A stretch of DNA of 15,059 nt from a virus. Lineage: Duplodnaviria; Heunggongvirae; Uroviricota; Caudoviricetes. This document shows, piece by piece, positions 2,446 to 3,407 of this stretch. The stretch is from the IMG/VR virus record IMGVR_UViG_2609460125_000004. One strand, 5' to 3'. How positions within the stretch are numbered: position 1 is the stretch's first letter; each line of letters begins with the position of its first letter. A program made the translations under genes and the position numbers. Under the pieces are notes generated by a model. It had not been told where the DNA came from, ran no database searches, and saw nothing but the letters and a program-made list of their open reading frames with translations.

Positions 2446-2607
2446 ATGACAAAACGTCGTAAGAAATACCAGGAAAAAGAAGAGATTCGACACCCTGATT
2501 CACCTGAGGGATTAGTGGTAGCCGCAGCAAATAACAGGGCGTTCGCAGAGCGCCTTGTTGGTGTTTACAGACTAGCCAAAGCAGGAGTGAAACATGGGCG
2601 TCGTTAA
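2446..2607 (+). CDS. Hypothetical small basic protein (53 aa)
   Basis: ATG at 2446 preceded by AGGAG; translation MTKRRKKYQEKEEIRHPDSPEGLVVAAANNRAFAERLVGVYRLAKAGVKHGRR; no family recognised. Confidence 0.4.
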   Translation: MTKRRKKYQEKEEIRHPDSPEGLVVAAANNRAFAERLVGVYRLAKAGVKHGRR

Positions 2608-3007
2608 GTTAGCTGATTACAGGCATAACCCTGTACAACATCAGGAGGCATCCAGTATGGGGTATGTCTCTATACACCGCCAGTTTATGGACAGCAGGCT
2701 CTATAAGGACTCTCAGGCAGTACATCTTTGGCTTCACTTAATCCTCAAGGCTAATCACGAATCTACTGTCGTCAATACGGATATCGGTCCGATAACTGTT
2801 GATCGCGGTCAGATGATAACTGGACGCCCGTCGCTGGTCAGAGAAACATTCATCCCCGACAACAAAGTTCGGAGCTTATTACGGACTTTTGAGTCGAAAG
2901 GGATGCTTAATATTTGCTCGATGGGGAAGAAATTTAGCCTGTTTACAATCGTTAAATATGACGATTTTCAGGCAAAAAATTGTCCAACGGTTGTCCATAA
3001 ACAATAA
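2594..3007 (+). CDS. Replication initiator, N-terminal DNA-binding domain (lambda O / P22 gene 18-like); the frame stops at 3007
   Basis: Position between cII and the helicase. GY.S..R.F..S.L......HLWL.LILKAN... has the general layout of the lambda O N-terminal domain. An alternative start at 2657 has an AGGAGG site. Confidence 0.6.
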   Translation: MGVVKLADYRHNPVQHQEASSMGYVSIHRQFMDSRLYKDSQAVHLWLHLILKANHESTVVNTDIGPITVDRGQMITGRPSLVRETFIPDNKVRSLLRTFESKGMLNICSMGKKFSLFTIVKYDDFQAKNCPTVVHKQ

Positions 3008-3407
3008 TATAAATAATATCTCTAATACTGACGTATTAGAGAGTGCCACAGCAGACAAAAAGTCTGACAAGAAAAAACCTTCCGTCAGCTGTCAGGATGT
3101 TGTCGATGCTTACCACGAAATCCTTCCTGAAGCGCCAAGAATCCGCGCACTGAATGACAAGCGTAAAAACCAGATCCGAACGTTCTGGCGCAAAGCCGGA
3201 GTGATAACCCGCCAGCTTGACGGGCATGGGTTCACGATGCAGGACTGGAGAAATTATTTGAGCTACGTAGGCGAAAATTGCCGATGGATGTTCGAAGAAC
3301 GCCCAAACCATCAACGCGGAACCGTCTGGCACAAAAAGGGATTTGATTTCCTGCTTAACGATAATACCTACCTGAAAGTTCGTGAGGGTGAACACGATGA
3401 CCGATAA
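2958..3407 (+). CDS. Replication initiator, linker and C-terminal part in the +1 frame relative to 2594-3007 (separate gene, frameshifted gene or sequencing error)
   Basis: Frame opens with an N/S/K-rich linker (INNNINNISNTD...KKSDKKKPS) then a W/F/Y-rich domain. Its stop overlaps the helicase start by 11 nt. No clear Shine-Dalgarno before ATG 2958. The track ORF starts at 2889. Confidence 0.55.
   Translation: MTIFRQKIVQRLSINNNINNISNTDVLESATADKKSDKKKPSVSCQDVVDAYHEILPEAPRIRALNDKRKNQIRTFWRKAGVITRQLDGHGFTMQDWRNYLSYVGENCRWMFEERPNHQRGTVWHKKGFDFLLNDNTYLKVREGEHDDR

Follow-up and report, generated by a model that had tools for sequence, protein, structure and literature searches.

The 15,059-bp stretch of viral DNA analyzed here (IMG/VR record IMGVR_UViG_2609460125_000004; referred to in its full length as the window) very probably carries a dead replication-module allele (ori−/O−) of a P22/Sf6/HK620-type (Lederbergvirus) prophage of Shigella flexneri, generated by a 77-bp deletion within the iterons of the origin embedded in its initiator gene. 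Positions 1–11007 of the window are 100% identical to S. flexneri GCA_000754175.1 (scaffold KN150717.1). A sequence-only reading had noticed that the initiator gene (2594–3407) is divided over two reading frames at a possible origin, and had left four explanations side by side: a real frameshift in a decaying prophage, a sequencing error in a homopolymer, programmed +1 frameshifting, or two genuinely separate polypeptides. Comparison with intact relatives indicates that the “split” initiator is an ordinary loss-of-function lesion, caused by a deletion between origin repeats.

Megablast analysis of window positions 2400–3600 (1201 bp) against GenBank phages yielded matches to 210 records, the best of which (Escherichia phages Huey, mEpX2, IME10 and HK542, and Shigella phage Sf6) showed about 99% identity. 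In these relatives the match comprises 1278 bp in two pieces, and thus 77 bp are absent from the window. Alignment with Sf6 and Huey revealed a single clean 77-bp gap flanked by TTGTCCAACGGTTGTCCA, with near-identity elsewhere. The intact array has the form AAAAAA-[TTGTCCAACGG]x3, a 34-bp spacer, and [TTGTCCAACGG]x2-TTGTCCA-TAAAC; the relatives therefore contain six TTGTCCAACGN iterons with 11-bp spacing, arranged as two triplets separated by the 34-bp spacer and followed by an AT-rich tract and a 10-bp inverted repeat. The window has kept two of the six iterons (2980–2997), while the other four, together with the spacer, are gone. Both end-points of the deletion fall inside the 18-bp sequence TTGTCCAACGGTTGTCCA, which is present in intact arrays as iterons 1–2 and again as iterons 5–6, at an offset of 77 bp. 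Since 77 = 3 × 25 + 2, the C-terminal part of the gene has been shifted into the +1 frame.

The features of the damaged locus are as follows.

2594–3007, + strand: 5′ truncated part of the O-like initiator gene; 137 amino acids (aa), native through V134, then H-K-Q and a stop codon at 3005–3007
within 2594–3007, + strand: putative iteron-binding N-terminal domain; residues 1–134 identical to Sf6 gp43 and relatives
2958–3407, + strand: 3′ remnant of the initiator gene, out of frame; predicted by gene callers as a 149-aa open reading frame (ORF) from ATG 2958
2980–2997, + strand: deletion junction with the two surviving iterons in 11-bp phase (TTGTCCAACGG TTGTCCA), placed by alignment, array alleles and the table of repeat offsets
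2998–3019, + strand: AT-rich tract of the putative origin, with AATAATAT twice; likely the DNA-unwinding element, on the model of lambda ori (PMC3349717); conserved beside the iterons in homologs at 64–68% aa identity
3019–3042, + strand: perfect inverted repeat (10-bp arms, 4-nt loop) that bounds the putative origin on the right; geometry kept in divergent origins (contigs L087, L088 and L090)

The 5′ part begins with an ATG codon, whereas the second frame (+1 offset) is open from TTG 2889 or ATG 2958 (the latter with no visible upstream Shine-Dalgarno sequence) to the TAA codon at 3405–3407, giving an overlap of 119 or 50 bp. All of the sequence features listed by the sequence-only reading were confirmed, and no coordinate deviates by more than one base: the A6 run, placed at 2973–2978, occupies 2974–2979; the TTGTCCA copies are located at 2980–2986 and 2991–2997, those of AATAATAT at 3003–3010 and 3012–3019, and the arms of the inverted repeat (TCTCTAATAC/GTATTAGAGA) at 3019–3028 and 3033–3042. 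The GC content of 2980–3039 is 0.20–0.25. Two occurrences of TTGTCCA in 15 kb correspond to the chance level (2.0 expected; two are reached in 123 of 200 shuffles), but the pair is meaningful because the relatives show it to be the remnant of a six-copy array.

The break in the gene is therefore real, as had been proposed, but it lies inside the 18-bp TTGTCCAACGGTTGTCCA and not on the A6 run, and its cause is the 77-bp deletion rather than a 1-nt frameshift. A one-base insertion or deletion at the A6 run was considered and rejected, since the alignment contains one 77-bp gap and the run is identical in the intact relatives; the suggested homopolymer sequencing error fails for the same reason. 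Alignment with Sf6 and Huey placed the switch point in the 18-bp iteron repeat at 2980–2997, and the native frame of the C-terminal domain is picked up again past the junction, near 2998. The length of about 271 aa, obtained earlier by adding the two parts, is correct as a sum (296 aa minus the missing 25.7 codons), but the intact protein of the relatives has 296 aa.

The profile PHROG 345 (“replication initiation O-like”, 297 positions) matched the N-terminal fragment at positions 1–126 (E = 4.7e-24) and the C-terminal fragment at positions 164–292 (E = 9.7e-54); therefore, only the linker is missing. In GenBank the two fragments are named “replication protein O [Shigella flexneri]” (KFZ96069.1; N-terminal) and “O protein [Shigella flexneri]” (KFZ96087.1; C-terminal). 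For annotation, this means that the two “replication protein O” coding sequences of S. flexneri records are halves of one pseudogene.

The closest known systems are Sf6 gene 43, HK620 O and P22 gene 18. The window shares with them (i) 99% DNA identity on either side of the deletion (Sf6, Huey and mEpX2), (ii) the same neighboring genes (cII, a 53-aa ORF, the initiator and an overlapping DnaB-like helicase gene) and (iii) the iteron core, AT tract and palindrome. However, these phages contain the 77 bp and encode one protein of 296–299 aa in place of the 137-aa and 149-aa fragments. On these comparisons, the window gene is a pseudogene of the P22 gp18/Sf6 gp43-type initiator group (PHROG 345), and not a functional member of it.

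Sf6 gene 43 (891 bp) encodes a 296-aa “putative DNA replication initiation protein”, and the Sf6 record places a rep_origin feature inside this gene, described as a “repeat region reminiscent of the phage lambda origin”. Together with PHROG 345, this annotation bears out the earlier view of an O-like initiator gene with an internal origin-like module of repeats, AT-rich tract and palindrome, as in lambda. The 296-aa ORF and a six-iteron array of 121 bp between fixed anchors were found in all 80 best IMG/VR relatives, as well as in an Edwardsiella prophage. Homologs consistently encoded as two overlapping genes were looked for, and the split form proved rare: a pattern scan of IMG/VR with identical anchors identified 120 arrays, of which 114 had exactly the intact length. 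These 114, like all of the named phages, have a single uninterrupted 296-aa ORF, which contradicts both programmed +1 frameshifting and two genuinely separate polypeptides.

The module is conserved over greater distances. Homologs with 64–68% aa identity (Escherichia sp. ESNIH1, Citrobacter and Dryocola) and the P22-type gp18 (phage ST160, 299 aa) retain 3 + 3 [T/A]TGTCCAAC iterons with an 11-bp period, the AT-rich tract and the inverted repeat; the length of the initiator in relatives is 296, 299 or 318 aa. The lineages differ in the sequence of the inverted-repeat arms, yet a 9–10-bp stem with a 4-nt loop persists (L087, L088 and L090). Although the palindrome is coding, the constraint on it thus appears, from these comparisons, to act on DNA structure rather than on the encoded peptide.

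A natural domain-and-iteron swap was identified in E. coli SCPM-O-B-8794 (L089, a 1616-bp contig), where the N-terminal domain is of another kind and the linker repeats differ with it (TTACCAGCA-type, two longer units), while the C-terminal domain, AT tract and palindrome are as in the window. In view of this co-variation, the repeats are taken as binding sites of the adjacent N-terminal domain and the module as an origin. Iteron binding is presumptively assigned to the N-terminal domain (as the PHROG name also suggests), and recruitment of the phage’s own DnaB-like helicase, encoded immediately downstream, to the C-terminal domain.

A separate observation concerns an 86% identical (aa) P22-like initiator of enterobacterial type, with the same iterons, found on a 799-kb contig labeled Chryseobacterium sp. 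18061 (L086; CACSKA010000001.1). Its sequence suggests that this assembly is mislabeled or contaminated.

Comparison with lambda reveals the same general design, i.e. an origin located inside the initiator gene, between the DNA-binding and partner-binding domains, and composed of iterons, an AT-rich tract and a palindrome. The differences lie in the components. The window initiator shows no detectable sequence homology to lambda O (no hit with Pfam Phage_rep_O). Lambda contains four 18-bp dyad-symmetric iterons, whereas the family of the window has 3 + 3 direct repeats with an 11-bp period, and the helicase partner is a DnaB-like helicase instead of the P loader. By analogy, the module would work like lambda ori/O while standing outside the lambda O sequence family.

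In lambda, a 24-bp deletion of one iteron kills both origin function and O complementation, and 12–15-bp deletions of the AT-rich tract abolish origin function (PMC6022878). Such ori deletions have been selected as survivors of replicative killing in non-excisable prophages (PMC6022878). The lambda ori− mutants (r93/ori98, r96 and r99/ori95) resemble the window allele in that small spontaneous repeat deletions inactivate an origin where prophage replication is harmful (PMC6022878, PMC3349717); however, the classical r-deletions (12, 15 and 24 bp) preserve the reading frame, whereas the deletion in the window also frameshifts the initiator. A further parallel is the IncX1 plasmid origin, in which the number of initiator-binding direct repeats was altered by a repeat-mediated deletion (22-bp loss; PMC6118388). 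The plasmid iterons are non-coding and their loss changes copy number, whereas in the window the iterons form part of the coding sequence, and losing them disrupts the initiator as well.

The 18-bp repeat at the junction points to the mechanism of deletion: slipped-strand mispairing or short-homology recombination between the two repeats (iterons 1–2 vs. 5–6) would remove 77 bp. By analogy with the lambda ori deletions (PMC6022878), the remaining two-iteron origin would be crippled in cis, and the initiator would be null, with its DNA-binding and helicase-recruiting halves unlinked. A prophage of this kind would be unable to replicate after induction, and should be scored as replication-defective despite its intact-looking late genes.

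Several points weigh against this reading. Apart from an insertion sequence (IS) at its left edge, the remainder of the 15-kb window is undamaged and runs collinear with phage IME10, with no further frameshifting gaps seen in that comparison, and its “decay” is therefore limited. The two-iteron origin could possibly be served in trans by the initiator of a co-resident phage. The deletion in this record is known from assembled sequence alone, and the Sf6 record itself calls the repeat-module origin only “putative”. The initiator has no sequence match in Pfam, NCBIfam or PDB: neither fragment gave a Pfam-A hit at E ≤ 0.01, and the intact Sf6 protein matched only DUF7376 (16 bits, below the cut-off). 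The AlphaFold (AF2) model of the N-terminal fragment is of low confidence (predicted local distance difference test score, pLDDT, 55.8), and a Foldseek search of PDB with this model returned nothing at E < 0.04, the weak hits being winged-helix proteins.

Analysis of other alleles indicates that the iteron array is a recurrent deletion and inactivation hotspot in prophages. Direct repeats within the intact array occur at offsets of 11, 22, 44, 55, 66, 77 and 88 bp, with shared homology of 21, 10, 10, 21, 30, 18 and 7 bp, respectively. The observed deletion sizes coincide with these offsets, and only that of 66 bp is in frame. The following length variants were identified.

77-bp deletion: two iterons, frame shifted; one IMG/VR contig
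66-bp deletion: three iterons, in frame (274 aa); two IMG/VR contigs
55-bp deletion: four iterons, frame shifted; one IMG/VR contig
22-bp deletion: four iterons (one in the left triplet), frame shifted; product P0005
11-bp deletion: five iterons, frame shifted; one IMG/VR contig; 159-aa products ending in DCPTVVHKQ and a stop
66-bp gain: nine iterons, in frame (318 aa); one IMG/VR contig and E. coli chromosomes

Thus, 6 of the 120 anchor-matched IMG/VR arrays are altered in length and 3 are frameshifted. Truncated N-terminal fragments ending within the iteron-encoded peptide were also found among E. coli, Salmonella- and Citrobacter-type alleles. Because the 11-bp period is not a multiple of 3, every register slip except that of 66 bp destroys the origin and the initiator together. 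Initiator-embedded origins whose repeat period is not a multiple of 3 would therefore be predictable weak points, and the iteron count could serve as a quick viability test for P22-like prophages.

Three observations on other alleles may be added. The nine-iteron form (3 + 3 + 3) is represented by E. coli EC190329 (L092; NZ_CP142949.1), L222 and hits H33 and H70. The 30-bp repeat at offset 66 could mislead assemblers working with k = 31. A second, commoner split allele, broken upstream of the iterons, consists of products P0029 (118 aa) and P0044 (171 aa), corresponding to E. coli STQ36411.1 and STQ36412.1; it was found on 47–49 contigs, one of which is 5.2 Mb long.

The distribution of the 77-bp deletion was examined with queries spanning the junction. 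A 36-bp junction sequence was found in none of 5426 complete E. coli genomes, 372 of which contain this type of origin; in a local control the query was not masked and separated deleted from intact arrays. A 42-bp junction pattern was absent from 185,579 species-representative genomes (GTDB), and gave one match in IMG/VR and one in a metagenome collection. The two matching contigs (L003, 3000–6300; L004, 1235–4420) are 100% identical to each other and represent a scrambled prophage remnant, in which the equivalent of window positions 2617–4416 is bordered by inverted lysis-region pieces, a NinI/Q-gene junction piece (window 8060–8547) and the end of cII.

By exact-sequence look-up, the 137-aa product was located on 15–24 contigs of NCBI, Logan and ENA assemblies; of the roughly 24, most are from Shigella or unnamed runs. 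Its contexts vary, with different repressor/cro pairs (L098 and L101) and with left arms of either RecT type (L094) or Rad52/Erf type (L093). In some remnants (L095/L099 and L097/L102), a helicase gene shortened to 328 or 119 aa is joined to gtr/integrase genes or to Q. When the distinct contexts of the 77-bp deletion are considered (six haplotypes defined by single-nucleotide polymorphisms, SNPs, plus L003/L004), three of the seven also show a truncated helicase gene or larger rearrangements. The split form is a rare derived allele.

Over 1275 gap-free sites, each of the six SNP haplotypes is nearer to some intact allele (1–6 differences) than to the other deleted haplotypes (6–13 differences). 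At the flanking polymorphic sites 2902 and 3086 (78 and about 90 bp from the junction), all four combinations occur on deleted alleles. Over longer flanks, the search for a near-identical intact “parent” was unsuccessful: three pairs with the nearest intact allele showed 97.5–99.6% identity there. This pattern suggests either several independent deletions or repeated recombination of very short tracts.

The recurring deletion could provide modest natural material for studies of repeat-mediated deletion and prophage domestication. A bolder proposal, that the coding iteron array is a built-in hypermutable switch and that the same 77-bp deletion arose independently several times (on at least six SNP backgrounds), favored in lysogens by immobilizing a potentially lethal prophage (convergent domestication), is speculative and on present evidence unlikely.

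It is improbable that the split form is retained for a function of its own. In such a scenario, the putatively iteron-binding 137-aa fragment, alone or together with the 149-aa C-terminal fragment, might for example block superinfecting phages of matching origin specificity in a dominant-negative manner, or the loss of replication might shield the host from a trapped prophage. In favor of this view, the allele encodes a complete N-terminal domain, and the exact 137-aa product recurs across several SNP backgrounds and prophage contexts; moreover, lambda ori/O-region fragments can inhibit the replication of an incoming phage (PMC3349717), and selection favors loss of replication in lambda prophages that are unable to excise (PMC6022878). 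However, the allele is rare (1 of 120 IMG/VR arrays, none of the 372 origin-bearing complete E. coli genomes), three of the seven deletion contexts are degrading further, and the gene lies downstream of pR and should thus be repressed in a lysogen. Deletions in other registers also occur and give different products, a pattern that fits mutation pressure and does not require selection for the 137-aa product.

Very improbable, too, is an assembly or sequencing artifact, in which collapsed repeats would conceal a true genome with a six-iteron array and one ORF. The lesion does sit in a tandem-repeat array known from assembled sequence, and the junction is missing from both genome collections mentioned above, but the E. 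coli negative is not due to masking, and the source is Shigella, which lies outside that collection. The collapsible repeat is just 18 bp long, i.e. shorter than the k-mer length of common assemblers, and the array assembles intact in hundreds of other assemblies. Furthermore, the identical junction or product recurs in independent NCBI, ENA, Logan, IMG/VR and metagenome assemblies with varied SNP backgrounds, two of them with contigs of more than 1 Mb.

Production of a full-length initiator by programmed +1 ribosomal frameshifting or transcriptional slippage on the A6 run is scarcely credible: the run does lie inside the 119-bp overlap, and an mRNA one A shorter would bring the frames together, but six A’s are short for efficient slippage, no conserved shift site is present, the two-frame layout is a derived deletion of what is a single ORF in homologs, other broken alleles differ in register (11, 22 and 55 bp), and the joined product would lack about 26 linker residues while the origin remained four iterons short.

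Apart from the damaged replication module, the window represents a lambdoid early-to-late region with a LexA-type repressor gene, cro, cII, a 53-aa ORF, the broken initiator gene and a DnaB-like helicase gene (ATG at 3397). These are followed by genes for NinB, a Dam-type methylase, NinG, NinI phosphatase, Q, holin, endolysin, Rz, the small and large terminase subunits and the portal protein, the last of which is open to the end of the window. An Rfam search of the window returned nothing. The two genes that overlap the initiator gene are as follows.

2446–2607, + strand: small conserved 53-aa ORF, homolog of HK97 gp53 and Sf6 gene 42 (PHROG 1331; Sf6 annotation); its 3′ end overlaps the start of the initiator gene
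3397–4833, + strand: intact gene for a DnaB-like replicative helicase of the P22 gene 12 type, 478 aa (Pfam DnaB and DnaB_C; gap-free vs. IME10; gene length as in relatives); the start codon (ATG) lies within the end of the initiator gene and is preceded, 9 nt upstream, by a GAGG of its own

The left edge of the window (1–328) is occupied by the terminal part of an IS3-family element (107-aa rve fragment, 3–326), located between the immunity region and gene N (L093, 4560–5735). This insertion would separate pL from N, and is likely to be a second defect of the prophage. The near-identical relative from run ERR042852 (L096), which differs by 2 SNPs over 5.6 kb, carries the 77-bp deletion without the IS; most simply, therefore, the deletion is older than the IS insertion in this lineage.

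Finally, a conserved 122-aa ORF (PHROG 6534; window 620–988, − strand), which gave no Pfam or NCBIfam hit, is located immediately downstream of the repressor gene, in the position of rex in lambda, and is a candidate for a prophage-expressed gene.

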